Shown: positions 7,391 through 60,900, numbered from the stretch's first letter. The stretch: DNA of 63,445 nt from Pseudomonadota bacterium (GCA_023433655.1 JAEYUE010000123.1:1-63445); one strand, 5' to 3'. The notes: generated from the letters alone by a model not told the origin. Made by a program: numbers and translations.

Positions 7391-8713
7391 CTATTTACAG
7401 GTATCGAGCGAAATATCCCGACTTGCAATTACAAAATATACTGGCGAAGCATCCAGGAATGGCAAATCGATCCTCACCAGAGTCCCATCCTTGCGATCAA
7501 ACATCCAGTACTTCGCACCAGAATTGTCACTCTCTTGATAGGCTAAAAAGCCGACTCGATCAATATCTTTCAAGGGGAAAATTTTTTCAATATGATACCC
7601 GCCTTGTCCCTTCTTCGGGAAACTTTGCACCAATTCTCCGGTACGAACATCGTACCAGGCGATGAGGGTATTACTATACTGTCCCTGTCGGTCTTCCCCA
7701 TCGAGCAGTAGCAGAATCTGTCTACTGTCTCTTTGCCACCAGAAGGTCGACATTGAAGGTCCGTACAATGATCCAGGAAGTTGCATCCATTTCAGCGTGT
7801 AATCTTCCAAGTCTATCAACCCTATCTTCCCTAAACCCTGTTCCCGCCAGCTTATAAAAGCAATCCAGTTCCCATTCGGTGAAAACTGGATCTGACGGAT
7901 ATTCTGATCCCGAAATTCCTCACCAAAATGGGTAAGCTGTGTCGTTAATTGGGACTGTAGATCTAGTATTTGGATCTGGACAATCCCGTTTTCATCTCGA
8001 TCAGAAAAAGCGAGGTACCTGCTATCCGGTGACCATCCTGCACCCTGGTAACCTGATCCGCCCCGAGGGGTGAGGTTATTGGGTAACCCATTCTGGTCAT
8101 TGACCTGCATCAGTTCAAGGTAGAGGTTGCTCGAATCACGTTCATCGAAGCCATTATCACCGGACGGTCGCACGAAACTGATCCATTTTAAATCAGGGGA
8201 AGCGGATACATGAAACCGTCCCTCATACGGGTATTCCGAGTCAAAAAAGATTTCTCTGCGATTAACAACCTCCCACTGCATACTAACTGTATTTATCTGG
8301 ATGCCATTACCCTCAGGAAGCTTATTTTGGAAACCATAAAAGAAACAGGGGTCGAGTGAAAATGTGATATCCCCATACAGGTTATCCGTCTTACGCAGCG
8401 TTTCACCATATTCATTTACCAACCGAGTTCCCATCTCATTACGGTATGCGTTGATGATCAACTGGAAGGTATCCGAGGAGAAATGTACTGCCTCAGGGGT
8501 AACAGCGGGGGTTGCCGTAAGCGCAGTTGCTGTGATATTTGTGGTAATTTTGGAAGAAGTACCAGTATCGGTTTCTCCTGCAGTAGGAGTGAACTCTAAT
8601 GCTGGTTGTGTAAAAGGCACTCTGGTTGTATTATTCTGACTACAACCATATAGTAATAGGAAAAATGTCAGAATTAATGACAAGATATTTCTACTTAAGG
8701 CTTTTATCATCAT
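7391..8713 (-). CDS. TolB-like beta-propeller lipoprotein, candidate immunity protein for the upstream M23 toxin
   Basis: Lipobox LLYGC, T/P-rich linker, WSPD/FSPNG (PD40-type) repeats; ATG 8713 overlaps the toxin stop (ATGA). Confidence 0.75.
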   Translation of the reverse strand: MMIKALSRNILSLILTFFLLLYGCSQNNTTRVPFTQPALEFTPTAGETDTGTSSKITTNITATALTATPAVTPEAVHFSSDTFQLIINAYRNEMGTRLVNEYGETLRKTDNLYGDITFSLDPCFFYGFQNKLPEGNGIQINTVSMQWEVVNRREIFFDSEYPYEGRFHVSASPDLKWISFVRPSGDNGFDERDSSNLYLELMQVNDQNGLPNNLTPRGGSGYQGAGWSPDSRYLAFSDRDENGIVQIQILDLQSQLTTQLTHFGEEFRDQNIRQIQFSPNGNWIAFISWREQGLGKIGLIDLEDYTLKWMQLPGSLYGPSMSTFWWQRDSRQILLLLDGEDRQGQYSNTLIAWYDVRTGELVQSFPKKGQGGYHIEKIFPLKDIDRVGFLAYQESDNSGAKYWMFDRKDGTLVRIDLPFLDASPVYFVIASRDISLDTCK

Positions 8714-13158: not shown

Positions 13159-13188
13159 GAGGATTTACCTTTTTAGGAAGATTGCTTT

Positions 13189-13232
13189 TTTGCGGAGGTT
13201 TTTCCCATGAAGTTTGGTCAAACCTCCGCAAA
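13189..13232. promoter_or_regulatory. Intergenic stem-loop between the two RHS half-genes
   Basis: TTTGCGGAGGTTT-N18-AAACCTCCGCAAA; followed by an A-run rather than a U-run on the coding strand. Confidence 0.6.
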
Positions 13233-13245
13233 GAATGCCGAGTTT

Positions 13246-44233: not shown

Positions 44234-47200
44234 ATGAAACATCTCCTTCCTATATTAGCTATCTTCATTCTCCTTTTTCAAAGTATCCTCACATTGGACG
44301 GGGGATATTTATCAACGAAAGTACAACAGGCCATCATTGACTCTAAGTTCGCCCCGTTTCTTGAGTACCCAAAGCAGGAAACTTCAGAAGAGCCAAATTT
44401 CGGACATCTTCCTGTTGCCTTTGTTCCAAATCGAGGTCAGGTTCAGGACAGCAGTGTAAGTTTTCAAGTCACGCACCTTACTGGTTCCACGTTCTTCAAA
44501 CCAGGTGAGTTCGAACTCATCGTACCAAACCAATCTGAACCAGAGATAGCTTCCTTTGACAATACTAAGGCAACGAAACAGAAGAAGGAACCATCGCGGT
44601 TACTTGTCCAGTACAAAAACTACAACAACAAGGCACTAGTACGTGGCATCAATCCACTACCGGGGAAAGCGAATTATTTTTATGGAAATGATTCCTCTCA
44701 ATGGTTCACAGATGTGGAGACATATCAGGGTATCCTTTATGAGGATCTATATCCAAACATAGATCTAGTAATTGGGGGAGGCGCAGGTTACATAAAGAGC
44801 TCCTTGATCATTGCTCCTGGTGCAGATCCCTCTCTAATTAACTGGAAGTACCGGGGGGCCCAAGACATAATCATAGATCAGCAGGGGAATTTACAAATAA
44901 CAGCTAAGTCTAAAGGTGATCCACAGTATTTTTTTGAAACTGCACCAATCGCATGGCAAACTGTCCACGGCGAGAACCTGTCGGTTCAGGTGGCTTACCA
45001 AATTGAAAATAACCAGCACATTTCATTTATTTTTCCCGAGGGCTACGATACAACGAAAGAGCTCATTATCGATCCCACATTAAAATGGGGTGCTTCTACG
45101 AAGAACATACCAGTAACTACTGAGGCGACATTAGAATGGGGCACTTACATAGGAAATAACGGCACGGATCAAGGCTTTGGGATTGATCATGACTCGGCCG
45201 GAAATGTTCTCGTAACCGGATATTCCTATTGCTGGTACTACCCACTTGTTGATCCGATCCAGGAACAAACAGGTGAGGAAGAAATTATCATTTCGAAGCT
45301 AGATCCCACTGGCTCTTATTTACTTTACAGCACTTGCCTGGGCGGTACCGGAACTGATAAAGCCAACAGCATTGCTTTAGATCAGCAGGATAACATAATC
45401 TTAGTTGGCGAAACCGATTCTTCAGACTTTCCTATCGTTTCTGGGATTTCCGCTTACGCTGGGGGGAACAAAGACGCCTTTGTGGTAAAGATCAATAGTA
45501 CTGGGAATGCGGTAACGTATAGCAGTTATATGGGCGGCAGCAACGAAGAAAGGGCGGCAAGTGTTGCTGTTGACCTTAATGGTTTCATCTACCTGGTAGG
45601 GGAAACAGGATCCAGTAACTTTCCAACGACAACAAATGCTTACGATCGAGTGTTTGGAGGCGGTACATGCGATGGAATCAAATGCAAAGATATCTTTGTT
45701 GCTAAATTTGACTCGTCATTATCTGATCTCAATTCGATTTTATACAGCACATACATTGGAGGCGCGAATAGAGTAGACAAAGGATATGATTTAGCACTTG
45801 ATCCAAACAACAATGTGTATATCACTGGATATACATTTACTCTTTCCGGTTTTCCTTTAGTAAACGCAGTTCAAGGATCAAATAACGGTGGCTCCGATGC
45901 TTTTATCATCAAAATGGATCTGAATCAAAGTGGTAACAACTCCATTCTGTTCAGCACATACTTTGGAGGAAGCAGCAACGATCGCGGGTATGGAATAGCG
46001 GTTGATGGATCCGGTAATGCATATCTAACCGGTTATACAGAATCATCGAACTTCCCAACAATGAATCCTTACCAAGCAGAACAGGGAGGTGGATGCAGTT
46101 CCGAATGTAGTGATGCTTACATTGCAAAGCTGAATACAACGACGAGTCAAATTGTCTACAGTTCATACCTCGGTGGGGCCGGTATCGATGAGGCCAATGA
46201 TGTGGTTGTTGACAGTAACGGAAGAGCCTATATAGCTGGCTTTACCAAATCGAGTAATTTTCCTGTGGTCAATCCTCTCTTCAGCCGCAGTATTGATGGG
46301 TGCAGTTCAGCGCCCTGTGCCGATGCCTTTATCACTGTCTTTGACCAAACTGGGGCATCGCTCGTGTTCAGCACGTATCTTGGTGGTAAAGGAGAAGATG
46401 TAGCCAAAGGGTTGGTCTTGGAGCCAGGAGGGAACCTTTTTGTTACAGGGTATTCTTTTTCAGACGATTTCCCAGTCTCGAGTGGTGCATATAACACAAC
46501 TAATCCAGAAAACAATCTAAAGTCGGATGTTTTTGTTGCAAAAATCAACTCAATTATCCCTACACCAACTCCAACGGTCACATCTTCATTTACAGACACA
46601 CCTGTTCCGCCTACGCCAACAAATACAGCAACAACAACGGAAACGCCAATTCAACCAACATTAACCTTTACAATCACGCCAACAGCTACTAATACACCTA
46701 CACCAACACCAACACAAGAACCTCTACTCGCTTGGACCGCTGAAAGCAACATAGAATTCGCGAATTTTGGGTGGTCTGTGAGTACGGCCGGCGACATCAA
46801 TGGGGATAGCTATGATGATGTTGTAATTGGCGCGCCTCACTATTCCAATGGTCAGACTAATGAAGGGGCAATCTATCTTTACTATGGATCAGAAGACGGG
46901 TTAGGCACAACCCCAGTAATCATTGAAAGTAATGAACCAGAATCTCTCTTTGGTTGGTCGGTCAGTACAGCTGGCGATGTGAACGGAGATGGATTTGACG
47001 ATTTGATAATTGGAGCGATTGGCTGTACCAGTCCAGAACAATGTGAGGGACGTGCTTACGTATTCTATGGAACTTCCGACGGGCTGAGTGCGACACCTGG
47101 CTGGTCAACGATGGGCGGCAAGGCACACTCCGCCTATGGATATACGGTGGGAAGTGCTGATAGTTACATTAAGTTGATCCACTTACGCTCTCGGATGTAT

Positions 47201-48136
47201 TCCCCCATCACCGGCCGTTTCCTCACCAGAGATACCTGGCAAGGCGATTATACCAGACCATTATCACTCAATAAATGGAATTATGTAAGCGGAAATCCTA
47301 TCAACCGGGTTGACCCTCTTGGATTATGGGAACTTGCCCCAGGTTTCAACTTATCTGAAGGTGGAATTTACGGGAAAGGCATTCTTGAGATGCAAGGATC
47401 TCCAATTCCATGCAAAGGAACTTGTATCGGCCCTGCTTCAACAGATATCTCGATCTTTGTACCTCCTGTTGTAAATGGAATGTTATACAACGATCAACAT
47501 TATGGAAGATATGGGTATACAGATGTCCGAATGATCAAGAAGTTGATAGAGTATGATGTAATTGAAAGGAATAACCTAACATCTTGCTACTTAGATGAAT
47601 TCATTATTCCTAAAAACACAAATGACTGGAAAGAAGTGTATCAGAAGATTGGTAAAAGTAATGCCTTTAGTCAGGGTGCCTTAGTAGACATAACAGTATC
47701 TATTGGAGTTGGAATGGGTTATGACTCAGGATATTCGCCAGTTGATATGACCTATAATTTGTTAGCTTACTACTCGAACAACGCTTCAATTGCTGCCCAG
47801 CTATTTGTAGCACAATCTAAGATGGAAAGAGAGAGATTGCAAATGGTAGAAATTTTTGATAACAATGAAAAAGCCGGCAGAGCCGAAGCAGGAGTGGGTG
47901 GTGTTGTTTTTGTGGCACAAGCATGGCAAGGTGTACAAACATTTAATAGTAGAGCTTTTGTAATAACTATAGAACAGCATCGACTTGTACCATCCTTATA
48001 CCGGGGTAGAATCGAGACAACGGCTGGTTTTTACGAAGTGAAATCTCATCGCCTATTAATTTCATCCTACTTCTTAAGCTTTGAGGGAGGAACATGGCGG
48101 GAGCAATTATTTAACCTGGCCGCGTCTAATCCGTAA
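44234..48136 (+). CDS. Chimeric ORF: secreted SBBP + FG-GAP protein (first 975 aa) fused in frame to element-borne RHS core and toxin tip (325 aa)
   Basis: Signal/TM, FVPNRGQ, SBBP repeats, TP linker, AGDINGD/AGDVNGD repeats; abrupt switch at ...VGSA|DSYIKLIHLRSRMY...RFLTRD...NPINRVDPLG. Confidence 0.88.
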   Translation: MKHLLPILAIFILLFQSILTLDGGYLSTKVQQAIIDSKFAPFLEYPKQETSEEPNFGHLPVAFVPNRGQVQDSSVSFQVTHLTGSTFFKPGEFELIVPNQSEPEIASFDNTKATKQKKEPSRLLVQYKNYNNKALVRGINPLPGKANYFYGNDSSQWFTDVETYQGILYEDLYPNIDLVIGGGAGYIKSSLIIAPGADPSLINWKYRGAQDIIIDQQGNLQITAKSKGDPQYFFETAPIAWQTVHGENLSVQVAYQIENNQHISFIFPEGYDTTKELIIDPTLKWGASTKNIPVTTEATLEWGTYIGNNGTDQGFGIDHDSAGNVLVTGYSYCWYYPLVDPIQEQTGEEEIIISKLDPTGSYLLYSTCLGGTGTDKANSIALDQQDNIILVGETDSSDFPIVSGISAYAGGNKDAFVVKINSTGNAVTYSSYMGGSNEERAASVAVDLNGFIYLVGETGSSNFPTTTNAYDRVFGGGTCDGIKCKDIFVAKFDSSLSDLNSILYSTYIGGANRVDKGYDLALDPNNNVYITGYTFTLSGFPLVNAVQGSNNGGSDAFIIKMDLNQSGNNSILFSTYFGGSSNDRGYGIAVDGSGNAYLTGYTESSNFPTMNPYQAEQGGGCSSECSDAYIAKLNTTTSQIVYSSYLGGAGIDEANDVVVDSNGRAYIAGFTKSSNFPVVNPLFSRSIDGCSSAPCADAFITVFDQTGASLVFSTYLGGKGEDVAKGLVLEPGGNLFVTGYSFSDDFPVSSGAYNTTNPENNLKSDVFVAKINSIIPTPTPTVTSSFTDTPVPPTPTNTATTTETPIQPTLTFTITPTATNTPTPTPTQEPLLAWTAESNIEFANFGWSVSTAGDINGDSYDDVVIGAPHYSNGQTNEGAIYLYYGSEDGLGTTPVIIESNEPESLFGWSVSTAGDVNGDGFDDLIIGAIGCTSPEQCEGRAYVFYGTSDGLSATPGWSTMGGKAHSAYGYTVGSADSYIKLIHLRSRMYSPITGRFLTRDTWQGDYTRPLSLNKWNYVSGNPINRVDPLGLWELAPGFNLSEGGIYGKGILEMQGSPIPCKGTCIGPASTDISIFVPPVVNGMLYNDQHYGRYGYTDVRMIKKLIEYDVIERNNLTSCYLDEFIIPKNTNDWKEVYQKIGKSNAFSQGALVDITVSIGVGMGYDSGYSPVDMTYNLLAYYSNNASIAAQLFVAQSKMERERLQMVEIFDNNEKAGRAEAGVGGVVFVAQAWQGVQTFNSRAFVITIEQHRLVPSLYRGRIETTAGFYEVKSHRLLISSYFLSFEGGTWREQLFNLAASNP

Positions 48137-48168
48137 GATATGACTTGAGTTGAGAGGAGTTGTAATTC

Positions 48169-48435
48169 ATGCCCACTCAGTTTCAGCAAATCTTGGATCA
48201 GATAGGTTTTGAGTTATTTTGTTTATGTATTCCAGGTCTTTTATTAGCTTTGGGAGGCATTCGAAACATTGTTCGGAGGAGTGCTATATCTGTTAGCAGG
48301 GATGGCCACTTTCGTTGGAAAAAGCCAGTATATTTAACAGGGAAAGACGCTGTTGAAGCAGGAGGCTGTACAGCATTATTAGGTATTGGATTGCTTTTGT
48401 TAGGGATTATTGCTATTATCGGAGATCTGCAATAG
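48169..48435 (+). CDS. Small two-TM protein, candidate immunity protein
   Basis: GAGGAG RBS; directly after the toxin tip; two hydrophobic helices; AT-rich. Confidence 0.7.
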   Translation: MPTQFQQILDQIGFELFCLCIPGLLLALGGIRNIVRRSAISVSRDGHFRWKKPVYLTGKDAVEAGGCTALLGIGLLLLGIIAIIGDLQ

Positions 48436-48598
48436 GTAATAGATCCTGTCCATATATTGAGTTAGAAGGCAATTTGTGACATAGTCAGACAAATAAATGA
48501 AAAGACGAGATGAACTGGAAAACCAGTTCCTCCCGCCTTTTCCATAGGCAACCTTAATTATACAACCCTGTTGGCTATAGGGATGCCCACAATTGTAC

Positions 48599-50095
48599 TC
48601 AGTCTGCGTTTGCCAGCACCTTAACATCGCTAATATCAAGCATCAGGAGCTTTACTTTTAGATGCTGAAGAAGATTAACCTGGTTCTCCGTGAGCGCGTC
48701 TTTCTGCATTGCTTCAAGGAGCGCCAGCGCCTCCCCGCACAAATCGGGCGTTCGACATCTTTCCGGCTCTTCCAGAGCTAGACGGCTCTCCACCTGCTCC
48801 ATCGCCTTGTAAAAGTCGGCTGCGACGGTTCCATCGTACAACCGGGCATAGTTGAGGGTGGTATCAATATGCTTGTGTCCAAGAATGGCCTGCACAGACA
48901 AAATCGGCGCACCAGCATTGAGTAACAGTGTCGCGCAGCTGTGACGTAATTGATGTGGAGTAATCTTAACACCGCATCGATCACCGTAGGTAATGAGTCG
49001 CTGCTGACAGTAGTGCGTGCTGAGCGGTTCATGGCGATAGACAAACAGGGTTTCGGGCAAGGAACGATCCGTTCCCCGCACCTGGCGGTAGGCTTGCAGG
49101 GCATCCACGACGGCCTGGCTGAGATAGACGAAGCGGTCTTTCAGCCCTTTCGACTGGTCGATTCGCACTTTGCGACGCTGCCAGTCGATGTCTGCCTCTT
49201 TCAGTCGCCGCACTTCACCTGTTCGCAGTCCGGCATGCAGCATGAGCAGGAACCAGGCTTTGTCCATGATCCCCATTCGCTGGATGTGCGCCTCAGGCGA
49301 TTGGGCTTCCTTCTGGATTTCTCCATAAACCATCCGAAGCTGCTCGGGCGGTGCGTCGCGTGGTATGCGCGTACCCTCGTTAAGCGGATCTACCAGCAGC
49401 ATCCGGGCACATATTGGAACTCCGGCCTCATCTTGGTAGTTGAGAAAGCCTTGCAAGCGGCGCAGCTCATTGTTGACGGTGATCGGGTTCCGTCCAGCGG
49501 TGAGCCGCGTCTCCAGGTAGTCGAACCAAAGCTTGGGGGTTATATCTTCCAGACTATTGAGCGGCGTGTGAATAGCCATCCAACGCAGCGAAGCGGTCAG
49601 GTGGCTGAGTAGTTCAAGTGTGGAGCGGTAGTGCTGGTCGGGACGCCAACTTTTGCGGCGAAAGGCCAGGTAATCACGCAGTTGCTCCACCAGCCAGATG
49701 GGGAGGTGCTGAGTGTAGTGATCCCAGTTTACATCCTGGCCGGTTTTGGGCTTGCGGCGGTCCAGGAACTGTGCCAGCTTCAGCAATCCCTTGTGATATT
49801 CCCGCCGCGTGTTTTCGTTGGGATACCGCTCTTCGAGATAGACTCGCACCCGCTCCAGGTCTGCAATCGGGTCAATCTTCTTGTAGGGCTTGTCCAAATA
49901 GCCTAGCGCCAAACGTGCGGAAACCCGGTAGGTGTTGCGCGCCGACTCGCTGTACCCGCCTTCTTTGAGCCACTGGTAAAAGCGCTGGAAGAAACTCCGA
50001 TTGACGGATGGCCATGCGCTCATGGGTTTGATGTTCGGGTCGGCAGGCGGGGTATCCTTAAAGTGGAATCTACGTATTCCTTTACTTTTGGTCAT
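48599..50095 (-). CDS. Tyrosine recombinase (long, two N-terminal SAM-like domains)
   Basis: ATG 50095 after GGAGG; GLRTGE, SKG, HQLRH, LGH, LNY catalytic set. Confidence 0.93.
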   Translation of the reverse strand: MTKSKGIRRFHFKDTPPADPNIKPMSAWPSVNRSFFQRFYQWLKEGGYSESARNTYRVSARLALGYLDKPYKKIDPIADLERVRVYLEERYPNENTRREYHKGLLKLAQFLDRRKPKTGQDVNWDHYTQHLPIWLVEQLRDYLAFRRKSWRPDQHYRSTLELLSHLTASLRWMAIHTPLNSLEDITPKLWFDYLETRLTAGRNPITVNNELRRLQGFLNYQDEAGVPICARMLLVDPLNEGTRIPRDAPPEQLRMVYGEIQKEAQSPEAHIQRMGIMDKAWFLLMLHAGLRTGEVRRLKEADIDWQRRKVRIDQSKGLKDRFVYLSQAVVDALQAYRQVRGTDRSLPETLFVYRHEPLSTHYCQQRLITYGDRCGVKITPHQLRHSCATLLLNAGAPILSVQAILGHKHIDTTLNYARLYDGTVAADFYKAMEQVESRLALEEPERCRTPDLCGEALALLEAMQKDALTENQVNLLQHLKVKLLMLDISDVKVLANAD

Positions 50096-50099
50096 CGTC

Positions 50100-50981
50100 T
50101 TATCCCTCCAGCGGTAGTTGGTCAACCAATTTCCGCATGGCTGCTTCATAATCGGCCTGCACCTGCGGGTCGGAGATGTTCAGGTAGATCTCGGTGGTGG
50201 CCAGTTGACGGTGTCCTAACAGCTTTTGAATGGTGGTTACCGGCATGCGTGCTTCGACCATCTGGCGGCCAAAGGTATGGCGGAACTGGTGGCAGGTCAG
50301 CCACAGCCCGGCTTCTCGGCAGTAGCGCGCCAGGCGATCTTGAATACCGGTCACAGTGAGCCGCTTGCCAAACCGGTTGAGGAACACCGCCGGGTCATGG
50401 CTCTCCGGACGGACGACCAGCCAGGTTTTCAGCGCGGAAAGTGCCTGCGGCGAGAGATACACCACGCGTTGCGCACTGCCTTTGCCATGCAGCCACAGTC
50501 GGGGGAGCAAGTTTTGCGCGGGCTGCAGGTACAGGTCGGGAAGTGATAGGTTGCGTACCTCGCCTACTCTCAGACCGCACCGAAGCATTAAGACGAACAT
50601 CGCCCGGTCACGCGGAGAATGAATCACGGCAAACAGCTTTTCGAGTGCGTCATCCTGCACGTCGCGGGGCAAACGGGTGCCAAGGCGGATAAAGTGCCGC
50701 CGGGGCAGCACCGGATTGGACGGGGCAGAGGGCGATTCGACCGCCAGGAAGTGATAGAACGAGCGCAGCGCGTTCAGGCGGCGGTTGATGGTGGTCGATG
50801 CGTGCTGTTCTCCCTGGCAGTGTTCGATGAAGCGGTCGATATCGCGCACGGTAATTTCGCCCGGTGTCTTGCCGGACCAGGTGAAGAACAGTTGTAGATC
50901 GCTGATGTAGTGAATCGGGGTGCTGGCGTGAGGCGCTTTGCGCCGCAGCCATTTCTGAAAGGACTCGATTTCTGGTAACAT
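50100..50981 (-). CDS. Tyrosine recombinase (XerC/D-sized)
   Basis: ATG 50981 after AGGAGG; GLRVGE, GKG, HQFRH, LGH, EIY catalytic set. Confidence 0.93.
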   Translation of the reverse strand: MLPEIESFQKWLRRKAPHASTPIHYISDLQLFFTWSGKTPGEITVRDIDRFIEHCQGEQHASTTINRRLNALRSFYHFLAVESPSAPSNPVLPRRHFIRLGTRLPRDVQDDALEKLFAVIHSPRDRAMFVLMLRCGLRVGEVRNLSLPDLYLQPAQNLLPRLWLHGKGSAQRVVYLSPQALSALKTWLVVRPESHDPAVFLNRFGKRLTVTGIQDRLARYCREAGLWLTCHQFRHTFGRQMVEARMPVTTIQKLLGHRQLATTEIYLNISDPQVQADYEAAMRKLVDQLPLEG

Positions 50982-51121
50982 GGAACTACCTCCTGGTGGT
51001 GGGGCGAAACGTTGTTCGCCATGAATGGATGACAGAAACTTGGCCGGTTTCCTTCTCCAGAATACCACCAGGAGCGTTTTTTTTACGGGCTTTTTTTACC
51101 CGCTTTGGAACTTAATGTAAT

Positions 51122-51982
51122 GGTGACGTCAATGGGGATGGCTTCGGAGACGTCTTCGTCGGTGCGCCCAACGATGGAAACAATTTCGAAGGGAAGGTCT
51201 ATGTCTATTATGGCGCATTGACGGGCGACGGCGGGCTTAGCGCTACGCCCAGTTGGTCTGCCAGTGGCGGTCAAAATAACGCTTACTTTGGTTTATCGGC
51301 CAGTTCCGCTGGAGATGTAAACGGCGATCAGATTGACGATCTAATTGTCGGCGCGCCGAATGCCAGCACCGATTTGGCCGGTGAAGGGAAAGCTCACATA
51401 TTTTTCGGACATTCGGGCGGGCTTTTGCAGACTGCATCCTGGACGGTTGAAGGCGATCAACTGGACGCGCACTTTGGCGAATCAGTCAGCGGCGTCGGAA
51501 ATCTCAATGGGGATGGGCAGATGGATGTCGTTGTTGGTGCCCCAGACTACGATGACGGCAGCACGGCAGATGCGGGAGCGGCATTTGTTTATTTTGGCGT
51601 TTCAGGCAGCGGCCCAACGGCGCAACCAGGTTGGAGCGAGCGGGGCAGCCAGGCAGGGATGAACTTTGGTATATCTGTCACCGGGGCAGGAGACGTAGAT
51701 AATGACATGTTGGCGGATCTTCTGATCGGAGCCAACCGCTATAGCAATAGAGAAGAACATGAAGGCAGGGTGCTCCTCCACTTTGGATCGGCAGGAGGAA
51801 TTGACCCGAACCGGAGCTGGGCGATGGAAGGGGGGCAGGCTTTCGCAAATCTGGGCTATGCCATTAGCAAAGTGTTTGTTATCCAACCGGGCAGCGCAGG
51901 AGCAATCTTATTTGCCGCTCCGCAGATGGATAACAATGAGGCCGACGAAGGCCTGGTATTCTTCTATTCGGGTTTGCACTAA
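51122..51982 (+). pseudogene. Displaced 3' part of the SBBP/FG-GAP gene
   Basis: Open from GDVNGDGFGDVFVGAP to TAA 51982; further FG-GAP repeats; in frame with 44234-47158. Confidence 0.88.
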
Positions 51983-51993
51983 GAGAGCGCATC

Positions 51994-54900
51994 ATGAAAA
52001 GGCTTGCAATCATCGTCTTCTGCACCATCCTACTCACCAGCCTGTTGCCCTTGACCGCTCATGCAACAGCAGCAAACCTTCTTCAAACCCCGGCCAACGA
52101 TGAAATCAGCGGGGCAACCAGCATAACAGCCAGTGACCAGGCATATCAGCAAGACACCACCAATGCCACAACTGCGGCGGATGATCCCATGCTGCCATGT
52201 GGCGGCGGAACGCCAGGCCAGCAGTCGAATACGGTATGGTTTCGCTATACTGCAAGCCAGACAGAAACGCTTGTTGTCGATACCATGGGCAGCTCGTATA
52301 ACACCGTGCTGGCCGTCTGGACGGGTACGATCGGCGCTTTAACGGCTACCGCCTGCAATGATGACGCGAACGGCTGGAACACCTCGGCGCTCTCCTTCCC
52401 GGCAGTAGCCGGACAGCAGTACCTTATCGAAATCGCCCAATTGGGCAATCCAGCAGGTGGGAACCTTTCGCTGCGCTTGCGCAACAGCAGCGCAATCACG
52501 CCGGTCACCATTCAGAGCGTAGACGAGGATGGCAATCAGATTTCGAGCGGAGGTCAGGGCTCTTCGATCTCCGCAAATGGTCGTCTCGCGTTTAGTTCCA
52601 CCGGCGAAGGGCTGCCCAATTTCACATCAAATGGCTACCAGCAGATTTTTGTGAAAGATTTGCAGTCTCGTGTTGTTAATCCAATTAGCATAAATAGTGA
52701 CGAAGATTTGGGCAACGGCGATAGTTATTCTCCTTCCATTTCTGGGGATGGACTGTTAATCGTCTTTGAAACCTCGGCAGACAATTTGGATCCGAACGAC
52801 ACGAACAACGACATAGACGTTTACATTCACGATACCAACACCGATGAAACAACGTGGATATCCGTTTCCTCAAATGGTTTGAGCAGTGGGCACAGTCCAG
52901 TGATCTCCGCGAACGGGAATTTTGTTGCCTTTGTTTCGTCCAAGGATTTGACGGGTAACGGAAGCTCCCCTTACGAGAATATCTACCTTTACAGTGTCAC
53001 GGATAAATCCCTAAAGTGTCTAAGCCTTTCCCCAGCCCTATTATCGGCGGACGGCAACAGCCGAATGCCTGTCATATCATCCGACGGTACATATGTTGCA
53101 TTTGCTTCGGATGCGACGAACCTAGTCACCGGTGACACGAACGAAAAGGGAGACATCTTTTTACGTCACACATCCGGTAACTGGACCAAGCGAGCCAGCC
53201 TGGCCGATAATGAAGCGGAGCCGGATTGTGACAGCGCCCTTCCGGCTGTCTCAGACGACGGACGATATGTTGCATTCGAATCCGGAGCCACAAACCTCAT
53301 ATCCGGTTTGACTATTTATGATTCCTCCATTTATGTTCGTGACCTGCACAATGAGACTACTTGGCGGGTCGCCGTGGACTTGCGTGAATTTAGCATCAAT
53401 TACCCATGGGTGGACAGTTTTGCTTTGTCTCCCGATGGCAAGCACCTGGTATTCGCTTACGAATACGAGGATTTCTCTGGTAATTACGAAAGCCGCATTT
53501 ACCGGCATAATATAGATAGTGGCAAGACGGATATCCTTACCCTCCCCTCTCCTGGGTTAGATATCTATCAGGCCGCTGACCATGATTACTATTATTCCTC
53601 TATCGCCCTTTCCGCGGATGGAAGGTGGGTAACTTTTACGGGCGATGCAAGCAATCTTGTGCCCAATGACACAAATGGGGAAGAGGATGACATCTACCTG
53701 ATCGATCTCTTCGAGCCGATGATTTACCCGGCCGATCATCGTGCGCAAGCAGCCCCGCTCAATTCGGCCAATTACCGCTACCGGATGGATGTGCGATCCG
53801 CTTCTCCCTCGCCGGATGACCCGGCCTACACATGTAACGGCGCGCCCGGTTCGCATTCGAACAACGTTTGGTTCCGCTACCAGCCGACAGCGAATACCAA
53901 TACCTATATCAATACGCTGGGCAGTGATTATGATACCCAGCTCTCCATCTGGAAAGAATCGGGGGGCAACTTGACCCTCGAGAAGTGTAACGACGATATA
54001 GATAGTTGGGAGGCAGAACAGTCTGCATTGCAACATACGGTAACCGCGGGGGAAACATATTTCATTGAGGTTAGCCAAAAAGGCAGCCCTGCGGGTGGCT
54101 GGCTGACAATTCAACTGCTTGAGGAAATGGGAGGGCAGACCTTCGCATTAACCGATGGTATCAACGGCCAGCAGCCAGATGATTACAGTGCGAGCTCTCG
54201 TCTTTCCGGTGATGGGCGCTTTATCGCTTTTGAATCCGGCGCAACCAATCTTATCGATAATGACACGAATGGGTTCTCGGACATTTTTGTGCGCGGTTGG
54301 GACATCGACGAGGACACCGGTGAGAAAGTTTGGGAAACGACGCGCGTCAGCGTCAGCGAGGATGGCAATGAGGCAGATGACAGCAGCGGCAATCCTGCAA
54401 TATCTGCTAATGGCCGGTATGTTGCTTATGCTTCTTGCGCGACCAATCTCACTAAGAATGACCCTATTACTGATAATGACGACTGCAAAGAGGATGAGGA
54501 CGGCCTCATTGGGATCTGGGACATTTTTGTGACCGGTTGGCATATTGACGAAATAACCAGTGAGAAAATCTGGAAAACGACCCGCGTAAGCGTTGGCATG
54601 AATGAAATTGAGGCAAACGGAAACAGTAGAAATCCTGCTATCTCTGCAGACGGACGCTACATTGCCTTTGAATCGAGCGCTACGAATTTAGTGCCAAACG
54701 ACACCAATGAGCAGGATGACATTTTTGTATACGACCGCGAGACAGGAGGTACCACGCGGGTAAACATCAACACGAACGGTGATCAGGCGATTACATATGG
54801 ATCATACAATCCGGCAATCTCTGCGGATGGCCGCTTTGTGGTTTTTGATTCTTATACAGCGAACTTAGCAGGCAATGATAACTACCGGAAAAATGATGTT

Positions 54901-57900
54901 TTCTTGCACGATCGCGCAACCGGCCAGACGACACTAGTCAGCGTTGCGCTAGGTGGGCGGCAGACCAATGGATACAGTATAAATCCGGAAATCTCCGCCA
55001 ATGGGCGTTATATCGCTTTCGAGTCCTCCGCCAGCAACCTGGTTGCAGGGGACACGAACAGTGACACAGATGTGTTTGTGCGCGATCAGGTCACCGGCGT
55101 GGTCACGCGGGTCAGCGTGGGGAGCAATGGTCTCGAGGCCAACGACTACTCTGGCTCCCCCATCTCTTTATCCACGGATGGCCGGTATGTAGCTTTTGAG
55201 TCCAGTGCATACAACTTTATTCCGGGTGATGTCAACGATTATGACGATCTGTTCGTTCATGATCGCCAATCCAACTCGACATCGATTGCCAGCATATCCG
55301 GCTATGGTATGCGCACCACCTATGGTACCTATGACGGCGAAATTTCGGCGGATGGCCGCTATGCGGCTTTCACAGCCTGGAATAGTGGCCTATTCCCGAA
55401 CCGCACCACAGAGAACAGTGAAGTATTCCTCCATGAGATACAGGCGGGAATCCAAGATACGCCGGAGAACGATAACTTTTCAAATGCCACAGTTATCCAG
55501 GAGCTGCCATTCCTGGATTACAAAAACACATTGGATGCAACGGAAGAAGCAAGTGACCCGGTGTTCGCGTGCGGTGGAACCGCGCAGTCCTGGCCCAAAA
55601 CCGTTTGGTACCAATATACGGCCCAAACAACAGGGTACATTGCCGTCGACACCCAATTAGGGACGGATTACGAAACCTTGATTTCTGTTTGGACTGGCAG
55701 CCAGGGCAGCCTCAATCAGGTCGGCTGCAGGGCCTTCTCCTCAGCTTCCGGCCAGCCGCGACTGGCCTTCTCCGTAACTGCCGGGCAAACCTACTCCATC
55801 CTGGTGGCCAAGAGCGGAGGAGAAAATGACGGCGGGTTCCTGGCGCTGCGCGCCGAAGAAACGGATGCGCTCGTTGTTAGCCGATTAGAAATCACGGCCC
55901 CAGAAACTACGGATCGATCCATGCCGTTCCAATTCACCGTGACAGCGTACGATGAGACTGGCCAGAAAGTAACCAACTACAACGGAACAGTAACGTTCAG
56001 CAGCTCCGATCCGCGCGCCACTCTGCCTGGCAACTATACGTTCTTGACGGGCAGCGGCGAATATCGTACCTCCGCAATCTTTGAGACGCAGGGAGACCAT
56101 TCGATCACGGTAACCGACGTCAATAATCCCAACCTGACAGACCAGGTGACAATTACGGTTAGTGGTAATTTGCACGTTGGGGCGGGCGATATTTTCTATG
56201 CAGACCACTACCGTTACAAGCTGAATGCGGCCCTGCCAGCAGGGGCAACGACACTGCCCATCTCGGCAGCTGGTGCACTTTACCCCAATGATGAAGTGCT
56301 TATCCTGAACCTTACCGGGCCAGATCGGGGTCTTTATGAAACCGCCGTTGTTTCAACGGTCGGGCAAGCTTCGGTCGAACTAACCGCTGCTCTATCGCAT
56401 GGTTTTGATGGGATCAACAACAAGGTAATCATCCAGCGCGTGCCCCACTACGAGAACGTTGAAGTTAATTCGGGCGGACTGATCACTGCGCACCCATGGG
56501 ATGGGCAGACTGGCGGCGTGCTGCTTTTGCATAGCGAAAACATTACCGTCCATAGTGGTGGAAAGATCAGCGCCTCCGAACAGGGCTATATCTACCTGGA
56601 TGAAGAAGCCGACTATGCCGCATCCTCTAAAAATGGCGGCGGGTATGGGGGCTATGGCGGCGGAAGCCTGGGAGGCATCCCCGATGGATCCGTGACCATG
56701 CCAACCCTGCTTGGCTCATGCGGCGCTGCGTTCGGCGAATGCGATGGTATCGGAGGCGGTTTCATCTGGTTGGTGACAACCAGTACCATCACCAACGATG
56801 GGGTGATCGAGGCCAACGGAGAATCGTATGGCTACTACTACGGCAGCTTCTATGCAGGCAGCGGCGGCAGCCTGTGGTTAGAGACCGTCTCGCTGCAAGG
56901 GAGCGGCTTAATTCAGGCGAGCGGTGGCGGCAGCGAAAACGCAGACAACAGTGCGGGTGGCAGTGGCGGCCGAATTTCCCTCACCTTTGCCACAAAAGAT
57001 CCCAATCTCAATATTGAAGCCTTTGGCGGCCTTGCGGCGGCGGACGGTGGCCCCGGTACGATCTTCCTGACAAACAGCATGGCGAATACCACGCATTTGA
57101 AAGTGGATAACAATGACCGAATTAGCCCGCCGGCCGGCCTGACCAACCTGACCCAGGCCCCAGAAAGCTTCACCTTTGACCAAATCGAGCTGGTTCGCGG
57201 CGCAACCCTCGAACTGGTAGATTCCAATGATTCGATTGTGCTCACGGAAACCAACATGACCGGCGATGAGACCGGGCAGTTGATTTACCACGGCGCACTG
57301 GATTACGCATTTCCCAAGACCTATGGGTTTGGCTTTTACGTTCCGCAAGAAGCGACGATTAACCTGCCAGAGAACTTCACGGTAACCGGTAGTGGTCTAA
57401 CAATTTACGGGGCGATCGGCAAACTGCAGGGCGTAACTATGCAAAACCTGACCATCGCGGCAGGCAGCCAGCGGGCGAGCACAATGCTTCTGTCTGCCAC
57501 AGGCCATACGGCAGACCAGCCAGCGGGAGTATATGAATTTGGCCAGGTCCTAGTGGACGCTAATCAACTGCTGGAGCTGGCAGGGGACCCACAAAACGGG
57601 AAGGGTGTAGAGATTCATGCTTCCAGCATGAGCGTGGCAGGGCACCTTTCAGCGGACGGATTAGGCTTTACGGTTGTACATAATGGTCCAGGTGGATCAC
57701 CTAATGAGATCTGCGGAGCTTCTCACGGTGGAAAAGGTGGCGGGGATTGTAGAGAGGACCCAACCGAGGACCCAACCTACGACCCGACCTACGGCTCAAG
57801 AGAGTGGCCAGTGACTCTGGGCAGCGCGGCCGGCACTGACAGCTCCGACTCAGCCAACGGCGGCGGAGCCATCTGGCTGGTGATCGACGAAGACCTTAAC

Positions 57901-60900
57901 ATAGCGAGTGATGGCACCCTGAACCCGGATGGCTCTCTTAATGGAACTATCAGTGCCAACGGGATGCTCGGATACGACAGCGGTGCCGGAGGTAGCATTC
58001 TGCTGGAAAGCGGTTCCATAACGGGCAACGGTTTTATTCAAGCAAAAGGCGGAGGCAATAAAAATTACTACGTTAGCGGCGGCGGTGGCGGTCGAATCGC
58101 GGTCTACGCCGGCCTGCTTTCCGATACCGTCCAGTTTGATTACTCAGGCGGCTTAGCCCGTTTTGAAAGTAACTGTGGTTACGGAGGCACCTTCTTCACC
58201 AACCTGGTAGACCTGGAGAACTCAACCGTAGTCGTTTCGCCTGCTCCTCCTGCCTCGCTGATGGTGACAGAGATGGCCACACTGACAATCACAGTACTCA
58301 ACACGGCTGGGAGCCCCATCGTGGACTGGCCGGTCGATATTGAGGTGGGAGATGGCGATGCCATCATTATCAACGGCCAAACCATCACTCGTGCTGACGG
58401 CTTCTATGCTATTGGGAGAACGAATTCCGATGGCCAGGTAACCGTTCAATTTACCGCGCAGAAATCTGGCACGCACACTATTCGGGCACGGGTCCGATAT
58501 GTTACCCTGGTCCAGGAGGGAACGATCACCTTTACACCTGGCAGTATGTCGATTGACCATTCGGACATTTACGCTGACCCCGATCAGGCCTATGCCGATG
58601 GCGTGGATTCTATCAACGTATACGCAGTTGCCCGGGATAAATACTACAATCCCGTGGAAGGGGTAGAAGTAGAGTTCCGTATGAACGCCGTAAGCCAGGC
58701 TCAAATGGCTCCACTCACCGCCACAACAGACAGCCTGGGGCGGGCAAATACCTATCTTATCAACAATACGAATGAAATGGTCACTGTATCTGCTTATTTG
58801 AATGGTGACTATCTTGACGCCAAGCGTGTCACCTTCAGCGGCCTTGATCTTAAACTATACTTGACCGGACCCACCTCTGTCTCGGCTGGAGGTACGGCCA
58901 CGTATGAAGCGCGGATCATTAATACATCGACATCGACGGCTGAGAATGTGTCCTTCACCCTGGTTCTTCCTGATGGCACAAGCCTTGCCCACCACGATGC
59001 TGGCAGTGCACCTATTCAAAACGGCAGCCAGTACGACTGGAGCCTGGGGACACTCGAGGGCCAGCGCATAAAGATCTTCCACTTTACCCTGTTACTTAAT
59101 CAAAATTTGCAGCCAAGTTCCACGCTCAATTTTTCAACCACTATCACCACCACAACAGGTGACACTAATCCTGATAATAACAGCGTAGCCAGGACCATCA
59201 CGGTGGCGCAGGATTATGACTATACCGCATCCATAAACCCACCGGATGCCATACTCCGCACGGGCGGCAGTGTTGACTATAAAATTAAACTATTCAACAC
59301 TGGATCCAAACAGGATACCTATACATTCTCTCAGACCGGACTGGATTCTTCCTGGGTGACTCTGAGCAAGAGCGAAACAGCCTTGCAGCCAGGCGGGCAA
59401 GATGGAATCATGCTAACGGTGCAGCCTTCCGGCTGCCCAGGCTCCGCGAATATCCCGTTCACCGTGTCAGTTCTTTCAGCGGGCGGGAACAAACTCTCCG
59501 AACTTGCGGGTACTTTGTCCATCAATCAAACGCCGGACATTAAGCTCGATACACCGGCAAATGGAGCGACAATGGGTTCACAATCCCAGGTGATCTCCTG
59601 GCGCTCGAACCCTGCCACTTCTGGAACGCTGTACGTTTACCCATCGGCCAACCCTGACCAGGTCCAGGCTTTTCCATTTCTGTCTGGAACCAAGCAATCG
59701 ATTCAGGTAGACAACCTGATCCGTAACACGCAGTATCAATGGTACCTCGAAGCGACGTCTGCCTGCGGATCCGTCACCACCGGCGCCCGGTCGTTTACGG
59801 TTGGCAACGGTCTGGTGTTCGCTAACCGCTCGCAGAACGTAGAGATCCAGCGGGATTACAACCAGCGGGTGAAGATCGCCATTCGTAACGATGACGATAA
59901 GCCGCACGACCTGACGGCCAATGTGTCGAATCCCTACGAAGACCTGATCGTCAACTTTGTCGACAGCGGCAGCACCGACCAGACGATTCGCCTGAACCCC
60001 GGTGAAGTACGCGAGATCGACCTGGCGTTTCACGCTCAGGACACAACGGAGCAGGACTACTCGCTCACCGTTCACCTTATCGCGGATAAGGACACCGACA
60101 ATCCGATTGAAGATAATGCTTTGCTGAATGTTCACATTCTGCAAGACAATGACTTCTCCATTGTAGAAGATACCGGCGCATATGATCCAGCCTACCTGGG
60201 CAAAACCTATGTAATCACCAACAACGGGACAACCATTACCGACCTATCGGTCACGGCGCTTGACCCTGAGACACAAGAGCCGGCCCAGGTATTCGTCAGC
60301 CCGTCTATCAACCATGCCCGCCTGGAACAAGGTGAGACGCTACGCTTTACAGTTTATCCGGTCTTTACCGCGGACAACGTCTCCACCTCGCAAGGCTCAA
60401 TGGGCAGCGGACCGCACCTGGCGACATTGGCATTGCAGTCTTCCGGTGATATCGACTACGAACTGCTTACCCAGGCCGCAGACCGCCTTGAACGCACTCG
60501 GGGCAAAGCGGTCTGTGGCGAGGGCAGGCAAATCTATCCGGTGGTCATTCACAATAAGATAATGACCTGTACCTCTAAGGATTGGTACTGCACTAACCGG
60601 CCATCCATCCAGGTTCCCCTAACCACGCCGCCGAACATCTTCCCAGCCGATATCAGCAGTGCCTGGCTGAAAGTAACCTTCGAGCCGCACGGAAATATAT
60701 TAGACCATGATGGCCAGGTTCTTCTGAATAATACGCCAGTAGGCGGTTTTAGCGACACTGTTCCGCATGGATCGTATTACTATAGTGTGCCACCCTCTGC
60801 GATAAACAGCAGCATTGCTGGCCCGGCACTCCAGACCACCACACTGAACACACAGCACCCGAACGACGGGCATTACATCTCCAGCTCGGAGATCAAGCTT

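Follow-up and report, generated by a model that had tools for sequence, protein, structure and literature searches.

A 3963-bp insert that interrupts an FG-GAP/SBBP gene at positions 47158-51120 very probably belongs to a widespread transposon family, seen mostly in Chloroflexota, whose small members carry a tyrosine-recombinase pair and have a fixed point in the core of rhs genes as their natural target. The insert lies in a window of 63,445 nt (the whole stretch of DNA analysed; Pseudomonadota bacterium, GCA_023433655.1 JAEYUE010000123.1) that belongs to a metagenome-assembled bin, 80% complete, with 351 contigs and 3.4% contamination.

Boundaries of the insert and the empty site

Features of the window:
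8710-13158, minus strand: second rhs gene; its canonical core site, near 9586 (target-site matrix), is unoccupied
44234-47157, plus strand: 5' part of the host gene (DUF7948, SBBP beta-propeller and FG-GAP repeats, by Pfam), amino acids 1-974 plus two bases; joins in frame to 51121-51982
47158-47163, plus strand: six carried bases, TGATAG, encoding (A)-D-S and setting the frame; outside the restored host gene
47164-47175, plus strand: left (recombinase-distal) 12-bp inverted repeat (IR), which also codes for the Y-I-K-L opening the RHS core half
47165-47326, plus strand: 54-aa second half of the RHS repeat-associated core, without a start codon and with DPLGL at its end (TIGR03696; aligns with 21 relatives)
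47327-48136, plus strand: variable C-terminal tip, 269 aa and stop, a presumed toxin
48169-48435, plus strand: 88-aa ORF with two hydrophobic segments, a presumed immunity gene
48599-50095, minus strand: large tyrosine recombinase, 498 aa
50100-50981, minus strand: XerC/D-like tyrosine recombinase of ordinary size, 293 aa
51109-51120, plus strand: right (recombinase-proximal) 12-bp IR, non-coding
51121-51982, plus strand: 3' part of the FG-GAP gene, opening with TGGTGA, the central hexamer that belongs to the target
51994-63444, plus strand: neighbouring rhs gene with 14 RHS-repeat stretches, DUF6531 and Big_1; its 3' end is off the contig

With the insert deleted in silico, the flanks form a 1261-aa ORF free of stops, which reads GYTVGSAGDVNGDGF at the junction, and both gene halves match FG-GAP. 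An earlier note on this DNA had removed the insert in this way and obtained a canonical FG-GAP repeat and an ORF of that length. The same boundaries appear in a 151-nt contig from a public run of another study, in which 47157 is joined to 51121 with 0 mismatches and exactly 3963 bp are skipped. This low-depth contig is the empty site; it could be an ancestral allele instead of an excision product. The insert measures 3957 + 6 bp. Its junctions read GTGC-TG-ATAG-IR on the left and IR-TG-GTGAC on the right, the sole bases in common at the ends being an ambiguous TG, and both the empty-site contig and the restored ORF show that no target duplication is present. The ends consist of a perfect 12-bp inverted repeat, TTACATTAAGTT at 47164-47175 and AACTTAATGTAA at 51109-51120, and thus repeat and junctions are found as the earlier note had read them. 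The repeat alone would be within chance, since the same 5.3 kb holds two further perfect inverted pairs of 12-13 nt; it is significant because of its position and its conservation in relatives.

Misassembly, the objection that the earlier note had raised against itself, would make the locus a chimeric contig joined at short repeats. The bin is indeed fragmented and partly contaminated, and the whole window was in no public run searched (best share 0.15). However, the empty-site contig exists, the flanks rejoin as a perfect repeat-protein ORF, and dozens of independent assemblies, some with long contigs of 0.7-4.4 Mb, show this architecture as well; we consider the probability of an artefact negligible. 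Perfect IRs around a recombinase-bearing segment within a gene would also fit a shufflon-like invertible segment, the flipping of which alternates the host C-terminus. Yet the flipped host frame reads Y-I-K-F-Q-S-G and then stops, after 7 codons, an empty site exists, and the same type of element is found in many different genes, so that inversion appears extremely unlikely.

The window element is single-copy in its 80%-complete genome and was not found in the 20 relatives of this genome that were searched, 12 of them of the same genus. The tip and the small ORF have a GC content of 0.36-0.41 vs 0.51-0.62 for the recombinases. Because no circular joint (IR-6 bp-IR) was seen in the public-run contigs compared with the window, and no run held the whole stretch, we infer the movement of the element from comparative anatomy and one empty-site contig.

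A recombinase pair and a start-less module with a presumed toxin

The two tyrosine recombinases, both on the minus strand and 4 nt apart, are intact as had been claimed: they match the Phage_integrase and XerC/D-like models, and R..HxxR..H..Y motifs are present in both. The family of the large recombinase comprises 687 matches, and its alignment shows no variation in R, HxxR, H and Y. The model matches of both proteins are generic XerC/D-like, all under the equivalog cutoffs; plasmid matches do not exceed 28% identity, and with TIGR02249, the integron-integrase model, both recombinases stay far below the cutoff of 265 bits, at 62.8 and 60.8.

On the opposite strand, the ORF at 47165-48136 (323 aa, without a start codon of its own) corresponds to positions 30-76 of 76 of TIGR03696 (Rhs_assc_core), with a score of 40.2 bits for the core half vs a cutoff of 32.5, and contains the motifs GRFLTRD and PINRVDPLGL. 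The start-less core half with both protease motifs described in the earlier note is therefore real, and so is its register with a coding left end (DSYIKL), the IR encoding Y-I-K-L. In the relatives L024 and L027 the core is likewise the second half of TIGR03696. The tip, put at about 270 aa in the note, is 269 aa long; it has no Pfam family and no fold match, and its 15 relatives among 1.84 billion representatives include several rhs C-terminal fragments with native cores. The small membrane gene noted next to it corresponds to the 88-aa ORF with its two hydrophobic stretches, which has 7 homologs (72-98% identity, all 87-88 aa) and lies directly 3' of the tip, at the same place as in relatives. 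From this position, the ORF after the tip is a candidate immunity gene.

A family with conserved ends and variable tips

Genome contigs yielded 309 candidate stretches, and 295 of these encode a relative of the large recombinase; 80 loci were kept, 69 of which carry Chloroflexota-lineage titles (hand count). Members of the family occur patchily in many Chloroflexota lineages and range from 3.5 to 7.4 kb. The earlier note had proposed to look for conserved ends in homologs of the recombinases, and exact ends TTACATTAA...TTAATGTAA, spaced 3-7 kb, occur in 24 of the 80 recombinase-homolog loci. The repeat is exactly 12 bp long, symmetry being down to 6-9 of 25 from position 13 on, and position 10 of the two ends covaries (G/G in 14, C/C in 9, discordant in 2 of 25).

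In 39 of the 80 loci, the far end encodes Y-I-(K/N)-L and runs straight into an RHS core half and a variable tip, with this cargo-type half on the strand opposite to the recombinases. Among the 41 other loci, 27 are too short to judge, which leaves 53 with enough sequence; the 14 of these 53 that have no cargo-type half comprise four distant integrases (at most 36% identity), five loci with degraded or host-type halves and five with none. The recombinase pair is found in 22 of 25 complete elements, where the order is also the same: tip, variable ORF, large recombinase, small recombinase. The complete elements have no third conserved gene like TnpC, Srap or Tfp, their other ORFs being the variable tip and the variable ORF. 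The latter, on the plus strand, varies from 66 to 461 aa and lies behind every intact tip.

Varied tips and following ORFs next to conserved recombinases, the second feature to be checked, are the rule in this family: in 210 pairs from 21 intact elements tip identity does not exceed 24% and tips are unalignable, with recombinases up to 92% identical. Indeed, L012 and L024 have recombinases that are 92% identical and core halves that are 91% identical, with tips at 18%; their DNA aligns over the recombinase module and the flanks but not over the tip and ORF. Only 3 of 22 tips have a Pfam match (Colicin_D, Amidase_6 and Peptidase_C39_2). Homologous recombination may be the route of tip exchange between elements.

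Insertion at a fixed point of rhs cores

Upstream of the element, 28 of 30 informative loci have the first half of an RHS core as the host frame, read in frame and interrupted at the same codon position. These upstream frames are long (2178 aa in L024, 2131 aa in L027 and 2148 aa in L036), and the L027 fusion ORF, 2417 aa, contains RHS repeats. When the left flank, minus the six carried bases, was joined to the right flank, an in-frame core of the form G-(Q/H)-6 or 7 aa-G-L was obtained for 12 of 16 rhs-inserted loci; in the remaining four, the spacer is longer (L036, L066), the locus is cut by the contig end (L016) or the frame is off by one base (L007). Of 59 informative loci, 26 have the host's own core half displaced to the far side of the small recombinase, and the other 33 show no such half; this does not apply to the window copy, because its target is not an rhs gene. 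The earlier note had postulated a site-specific element that normally inserts in rhs cores, in frame and with the old tip left downstream, and these counts support it: relatives do carry RHS cargo, and their frames are not random. An independent metagenome sample of the subfamily that includes the window element has 17 sites, of which 11 are RHS-type (regex), and one upstream frame is 3309 aa long.

The distal hexamer is conserved as nRAYAG in relatives, whereas the proximal hexamer varies with the target; the two are identical in only three loci (L019, L039 and L021). TGATAG in the window would thus have travelled from a previous site as the central, or 'footprint', hexamer. The reconstructed rhs targets bear only a weak resemblance to the 12-bp arms.

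These data also bear on passive capture, by which an ordinary integrase element took up, or inserted beside, an orphan rhs fragment, all tip exchange being due to homologous recombination and the recombinases being unconnected with rhs. The established model invokes homologous recombination with orphan modules (PMC2935791), for which the core half provides about 160 nt of homology, and near-identical elements with different tips need some recombination in any case. However, the IR itself encodes the first four cargo residues in 39 loci, the boundary in the window coincides exactly with the repeat and its adjoining 6 bp, inside a gene without rhs homology, and 28 of 30 loci share the codon position at which the rhs core is interrupted. 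We thus judge passive capture very unlikely.

A model for in-frame toxin fusion

The loci show that the recombinase-distal IR doubles as coding sequence for Y-I-K/N-L. With the six carried bases, it fuses, in frame, the first half of the host's RHS core (..Y-x-(Y/F)-T-G-(Q/H/E)-x-x-D-S) with the element-borne second half, behind which come the new tip and the following small gene. What the host itself had there, namely the second core half, its tip and the gene downstream, is shifted beyond the recombinases and becomes an orphan module. In the transposon model that we favour, the moving intermediate would be a circular form with the joint IR, 6 bp, IR. Strand exchange would take place at one edge of the 6-bp centre, and therefore the carried hexamer would end up distal and the target hexamer proximal, with nothing duplicated. 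Having neither start codon nor promoter, the toxin is predicted to be silent until in-frame integration.

We lean towards the view that these elements form an undescribed large class of 'gene-fusion transposons', in which one terminal repeat is dual-coded (recombinase site and RHS core codons) and a start-less, promoter-less toxin is armed only on in-frame rhs integration. They would supply the agent so far lacking in accounts of rhs C-terminal displacement and of orphan arrays, in Chloroflexota at least, and other families of polymorphic toxins may have comparable elements. A literature search found no published description of such an element, just as the earlier note had known of none.

Comparison with known systems

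The element matches Tn554/SE-type transposons (recombinases TnpA/TnpB and IntA/IntB) in geometry and polarity. In Tn554/SE, terminal IRs flank a 6-bp spacer in the circular intermediate; a 6-bp 'footprint' is carried at the recombinase-distal end, the target's 6 bp lie at the proximal end and no target duplication is made (PMC10214605). The present element has the same arrangement of carried and target hexamers, again with no duplication, as well as an adjacent recombinase pair (293 + 498 aa, 4 nt apart), and it is also target-specific and devoid of transfer genes. Tn554/SE elements use an accessory protein (TnpC, Srap or Tfp), carry resistance genes and reside in Firmicutes or Gammaproteobacteria (PMC10214605). 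In contrast, our element has no counterpart of TnpC/Srap or Tfp, its hosts are Chloroflexota, and its cargo is a start-less toxin module; moreover, its target is inside coding sequence, and one IR with the carried 6 bp is read as fusing codons.

Poole et al. (2011) reportedly dealt with rhs C-terminal displacement and orphan core-tip modules. In this process, a new core fragment and tip replace the old ones, which are left downstream, sometimes in strings, and a circular intermediate was postulated (Jackson et al. 2009, PMC2935791). An old core fragment and tip downstream of the new one are likewise seen in the relatives (the 26 informative loci above); here, however, the incoming module is within a recombinase-bearing element with defined ends, which can land in non-rhs DNA.

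In E. coli K-12, prophage e14 integrates within icd and supplies an in-frame 3' end, the original one being stranded on the far side (PMC13626634). Both are integrating elements inside a protein-coding gene that bring a replacement 3' end in frame. Yet e14, which is of phage type and has only one integrase, restores essentially the same protein, whereas here the functional C-terminal domain changes.

Integron cassettes hold promoter-less cargo that stays unexpressed until site-specific insertion places it behind a promoter already present, a feature our element would share. They have been named as a precedent (PMC2935791). Unlike them, the element has no attC or attI, its ends are 12-bp IRs, it encodes its own recombinases, and insertion produces a translational fusion, not only a transcriptional one. 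The 'rAID' clusters of Bacteroidales are recombinase-associated polyimmunity loci. In polyimmunity loci, Xer-like tyrosine recombinases adjoin cassettes related to polymorphic toxins (Zhang et al. 2012, PMC3482391); these loci, however, gather immunity genes and are not reported to join a toxin tip in frame to a delivery gene.

The window copy as a probable off-target insertion

The interrupted FG-GAP gene encodes ..S-A-Y-G-Y-T.., a look-alike of the left arm (..S-Y-G-Y-T-x-E..) found at the native site, and the window copy is, in the favoured model, an off-target insertion. The host part (DUF7948/SBBP/FG-GAP) has no RHS repeats upstream in frame, unlike the relatives. The real insertion site ranks 68 of 118,830 positions with a matrix from 14 rhs targets, and 42 of 118,894 with a left-arm matrix from 11 subfamily targets. 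According to the earlier note, the element had landed in frame in the gene upstream of an rhs; the in-frame position in the 1261-aa gene and the rhs at 51994-63444 are both present, but the frame is probably a by-product of the look-alike site, because only one of the three non-rhs insertions with family ends (window, L046 and L057) has a long in-frame upstream ORF. The window tip fusion is probably non-functional as a weapon, since the partner protein lacks an RHS shell.

These off-target copies help to weigh another possibility, a domesticated switch controlled by the host, whose recombinases would excise and re-integrate tip cassettes at its own rhs loci to change the toxin in a programmed way, with horizontal movement incidental. 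Several loci do show core-half arrays, extra recombinase remnants and recombinase-less cargo-type halves around one rhs gene, several diverged copies occur inside one assembled genome, and a start-less toxin is of use only at the host's rhs gene. Nevertheless, copies with the same ends lie in non-rhs DNA, the element is absent from the 20 relatives of the window genome that were searched, its GC is unlike that of the flanks, and the family is patchy over many Chloroflexota lineages; a host-controlled switch is therefore unlikely.

In the neighbouring rhs gene at 51994-63444, the native target is not visible because the contig stops before the core. A canonical rhs core site in the same window is left unoccupied: the site near 9586 (sequence ..GYTGQRNEAGFGLIDYNARYYSP..) has a matrix score of 46, the top of 118,830 positions.

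Structure and boundaries of the inserted element

The earlier note had described a mobile element that grafts an RHS core half and toxin tip in frame onto a host gene; our analysis confirmed this observation and supported its interpretation. The inserted copy and the related genes of the window are arranged as follows, all cargo lying between a recombinase-distal (left) and a recombinase-proximal (right) repeat:

44234-48136, + strand: fused ORF of 1300 aa, with DUF7948, SBBP beta-propeller and FG-GAP repeats at its start
47164-47175 and 51109-51120: perfect 12-bp inverted repeat
47327-48133, + strand: tip of 269 aa, no family
48169-48435, + strand: small ORF of 88 aa with two hydrophobic stretches
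48599-50095, - strand: large tyrosine recombinase of 498 aa, with R, HxxR, H and Y motifs
50100-50981, - strand: XerC/D-like tyrosine recombinase of 293 aa, with R, HxxR, H and Y motifs
51994-63444: RHS-repeat protein gene, next gene downstream, cut by the contig end with its core off the contig
13246-21435, - strand: ORF of 2729 aa, 47% identical over 304 residues to the SBBP/FG-GAP protein that the insert interrupts
8710-13158, - strand: rhs gene of 1482 aa following the 2729-aa ORF, with core and tip intact and an unoccupied core site near 9586

Taking out the 3963 bp restored a stop-free ORF of 1261 aa with the junction GYTVGSAGDVNGDGF, the FG-GAP frame being picked up again past the right repeat. 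Both recombinases, claimed to be intact, indeed are, and their genes are spaced by 4 nt. The start-less second half of the RHS core was also borne out: it begins after residue 975 of the fused ORF and matches positions 30-76 of the 76 of TIGR03696 with 40.2 bits (cutoff, 32.5 bits). GC content is 0.36-0.41 in the tip and small ORF, and 0.51-0.62 in the recombinases. The ends are perfect inverted repeats as reported; taken alone such a 12-bp repeat is unremarkable, because two more perfect inverted pairs of 12-13 nt occur in the same 5.3 kb.

The whole stretch was in no public sequencing run (best share of words, 0.15), and we therefore relied on contigs of four public runs matched to the window. 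In X3, a compost metagenome run from a different study, a contig of 151 nt joins position 47157 straight to 51121 and skips the 3963 bp with 0 mismatches (108 nt on the left side, 43 nt on the right). This single low-depth contig is an unoccupied site. It may represent the ancestral allele rather than an excision product; in either case it fixes the boundaries of the insert and argues against a chimeric assembly. Over the parts of the stretch covered by contigs of the four runs, a circle-type joint was not seen. X3 also contained contigs matching the small-ORF region (48149-48329) with 2-8 differences, and a related element or the occupied allele may coexist with the empty site in that sample.

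The element is present as a single copy in the window's genome: searching the 80%-complete assembly yielded neither a second copy nor another core half. Orthologs of the recombinase or of the FG-GAP gene were absent from all 20 relatives examined, 12 of them from the same genus. The design of the interrupted pair recurs in a further pair of genes at 8710-21435 on the - strand.

A family of related elements, mostly in Chloroflexota

The large recombinase had 687 matches in the protein collection. The best 120 are almost complete in length (about 480-510 aa), with 50% identity or more along most of the query. Single-protein peptide patterns retrieved no close relatives from genome contigs, whereas an alignment-based scan of one genome per species succeeded, giving 295 stretches that encode relatives, out of which 80 loci were kept. 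Viral contigs yielded no relative of the large recombinase. According to a hand count of record titles, 69 of the 80 loci belong to Chloroflexota lineages, Anaerolineae, Ardenticatenaceae and Thermoflexales among them. Five loci (L016, L035, L044, L069 and L077) come from bins labelled Caldisericales, Shapirobacteria, Microthrixaceae, Desulfobulbaceae and Acidobacteriota, respectively; these labels could mean that contigs were wrongly binned or that the family was transferred outside Chloroflexota.

In 24 of the 80 loci, the nine outer repeat bases recur in inverted orientation, as expected, at a distance of 3-7 kb. The repeat measures 12 bp exactly: its two copies agree at positions 10-12 in 22-23 of 25 elements, and at positions 13-16 in only 6-9. 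Either of two states occurs at position 10, changing jointly at both ends (G/G in 14 elements, C/C in 9, discordant in 2), the elements compared being related and hence not independent observations. Such covariation, together with the 12-bp limit, is the pattern that a pair of recombinase-binding arms would predict.

Among genome loci, L007:7591-15028 is the closest relative (62% identity). This element spans 7.4 kb and has about 3.5 kb of additional DNA separating the tip module from the recombinases. Where it meets the host rhs gene, the frame is off by one base next to a homopolymer, which could be a sequencing error or decay.

Conserved recombinases lie beside unrelated tips

The left end of the window copy had been read as coding and in register with the RHS core, and the same holds across the family: Y-I-(K/N)-(L/M) was read inward from the distal repeat in 21 of the 24 loci. 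These 21 frames run without a stop through ..SRWYDPxLGRFxxPD..NRYxYxxNNPxxxxDPTGH and then for 190-250 more residues; the remaining three loci are decayed (ORFs of 14, 54 and 7 aa). A core-half profile was run on all six frames of the 80 loci, and a half counted as cargo-type if its match started at model position 1, opposite in strand to the recombinases and no more than 7.5 kb away. It was detected in 39 loci, and 27 were too short to judge. No such half was found by this search in 14 loci despite at least 4 kb of sequence there: four have distant integrases (at most 36% identity), five have degraded or host-type halves and five have nothing.

Past the DPxG motif the tips could not be aligned, and only 3 of 22 had Pfam matches (Colicin_D, Amidase_6 and Peptidase_C39_2). 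Over the 210 pairs of 21 intact elements, tip identity reached 24% at most vs up to 92% for the recombinases. Every intact element has another ORF straight after its tip; these ORFs are 66-461 aa long and show no relationship from one element to the next. These results agree with the proposal that varied tips and following genes accompany conserved recombinases. The case is clearest for L012 vs L024, where recombinases are 92%, core halves 91% and tips 18% identical; at the DNA level the recombinase module and the flanks align, and the tip and following ORF do not.

In L008 and L010 the recombinases are intact, the toxin half is absent and a lipoprotein-like or membrane ORF occupies the cargo position downstream of the large recombinase; L010 keeps the displaced host half. 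Both look like elements minus the toxin, perhaps with an immunity gene retained.

Relatives enter rhs cores in frame at one point

That rhs cores are the normal target was supported by reading the upstream host frame at 31 loci with a recognisable distal end, 30 of which were informative (L026 is cut by the contig end). Apart from L046 and L057, all of the 30 (28 loci) have a host frame that closes with ..Y-x-(Y/F)-T-G-(Q/H)-x-x-D-S, or something very near it, where the element begins. The in-frame stretch upstream of the element can be long (2178 aa in L024, 2131 aa in L027, 2148 aa in L036), and the L027 fusion contains RHS repeats. Past the proximal repeat, the second half of the host core and its tip resume one base out of phase, for example ..DVEIGLYFYNARYYDPALGRFIQADTIVP..DPTGH... 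By profile, a displaced host half was found in 26 loci and not in 33, with 21 too short to judge. Joining the left flank, minus its six repeat-adjacent bases, to the right flank gave back a core that stays in frame, G-(Q/H)-6 or 7 residues-G-L, at 12 of the 16 loci with an rhs insertion. As to the other four, L036 and L066 keep the frame and have more residues in the spacer, the contig end truncates L016 and L007 is one base off.

Several loci contain strings of core halves and recombinase remnants, including cargo-type halves with the repeat and without recombinases. The latter are how element-delivered modules would turn into ordinary orphans. At L050, L018, L066, L071 and L049, three to five core halves stand in one orientation, host-type mixed with repeat-started ones, together with recombinase remnants; such arrays could record successive insertions.

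An exact 24-mer of the cargo end had no match in metagenome contigs, and a degenerate pattern for the window's own subfamily recovered 17 sites in 16 loci from them. An RHS-type upstream flank was recognised by regular expression at 11 of the 17 sites (FGYTGQQTDS in metagenome locus L111), one upstream frame is 3309 aa long, and four loci have full-length recombinase matches at 51-56% identity. The window's tip was in none of the 16 loci.

The FG-GAP gene as a look-alike target

The core half of the window element belongs to a subfamily with the consensus ..LRSRxYSPxTGRFLTxDxWQGDY..DPLGLW, whose native flanks read ..S-Y-G-(Y/F)-(T/A)-x-E-x-x-D-S. At an equal distance from the crossover, the FG-GAP gene reads ..S-A-Y-G-Y-T-V-G-S-A. 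With a matrix of 14 rhs targets, the real site ranked 68th of 118,830 positions once the element was taken out of the window, and 29th by the left arm alone; with a left-arm matrix of 11 subfamily targets it ranked 42nd of 118,894. Both the likeness of the flanks and these ranks argue that the FG-GAP site is a look-alike and not a random hit. The FG-GAP gene and the cargo probably have a common frame because the codons are shared with the native site. By its predicted score the site is a poor target all the same: the unoccupied canonical rhs core site near 9586, which belongs to another core clade, scores far higher. As the resulting fusion is without an RHS shell, it is expected to be of no use in delivery.

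A probable variant of a known transposition mode

The six bases adjacent to the distal repeat are conserved as nRAYAG (TGATAG in the window) and fall outside the restored host gene. The six bases adjacent to the proximal repeat differ by target and are part of the host gene. Only at three loci (L019, L039 and L021) are the two hexamers identical. With an arm on either side of a 6-bp centre, the ends may resemble an Xer dif site.

As described in PMC10214605, SE elements and relatives of Tn554 have a circular form in which the terminal inverted repeats surround a 6-bp spacer; the 6 bp of the target end up at the int-proximal end and the carried 6 bp at the int-distal end, with target duplication absent. 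The hexamers of our element have the same polarity, a likeness in reported behaviour (PMC10214605). This match suggests that the element would move as a circle closed by a joint of IR, 6 bp, IR, strand exchange probably occurring at one edge of the 6-bp centre. Unlike SE and Tn554, the element has no counterpart of TnpC, Srap or Tfp, its hosts are a new phylum for that class, its target lies within coding sequence, and its repeat and hexamer are read as codons. The machinery is thus probably a variant of a known transposition mode, whose range it widens in host phylum and in kind of target.

The outcome, C-terminal displacement, is likewise a known pattern. The model proposed in 2009 by Jackson et al. 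required a circular intermediate of unknown origin, and the same paper states that rhs was not known to have an integrase alongside it (PMC2935791). XerC/D recombinases were noted beside polyimmunity loci by Zhang et al. 2012 (PMC3482391), and e14 in icd offers an earlier case of a replacement gene end brought in by an element (PMC13626634). Searches over the main text of papers found no recombinase-borne, in-frame RHS tip described; supplementary tables, e.g. Additional File 1 of PMC3482391 on recombinases beside toxin loci, may contain such cases. A dedicated element that unites both, swapping toxins by in-frame fusion, therefore appears to be undescribed.

Ever since the first description of C-terminal displacement, it has been a question how rhs genes come by new toxin tips. 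The element family offers a concrete, testable agent: its ends are defined, it has two recombinases and a fixed target codon, it brings in a core half with tip and following gene, and it displaces the old module. In nature it also exemplifies a transposon end read as protein, so that insertion is a translational fusion by design, and the toxin would be silent in transit. These elements bear on the spread of polymorphic toxin arsenals among bacteria of soils, sediments and sludge, habitats rich in Chloroflexota.

The tip and small ORF of the window copy

The window tip had 15 relatives among 1.84 billion representatives. Several of these are on rhs C-terminal fragments with native cores (e.g. 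..FTGEQMDSYSGLLYLRTRY..), and the tip is therefore a genuine, unnamed RHS tip family. Its alignment consensus has the majority motif ..IQEH..RAIIET.. and no invariant columns. The tip matched no Pfam family and had no usable match in the protein atlas; a word-based search among longer proteins returned the window's own protein only. The structure model was of moderate quality (pLDDT 64, pTM 0.65) and matched no solved structure (best E 0.27, TM 0.11).

The 88-aa ORF has seven homologs at 72-98% identity and is, by its position, a putative immunity protein. Between this ORF and the convergent large recombinase gene lies a hairpin (48512-48529; 7-bp stem, 4-nt loop), which may act as a two-way terminator.
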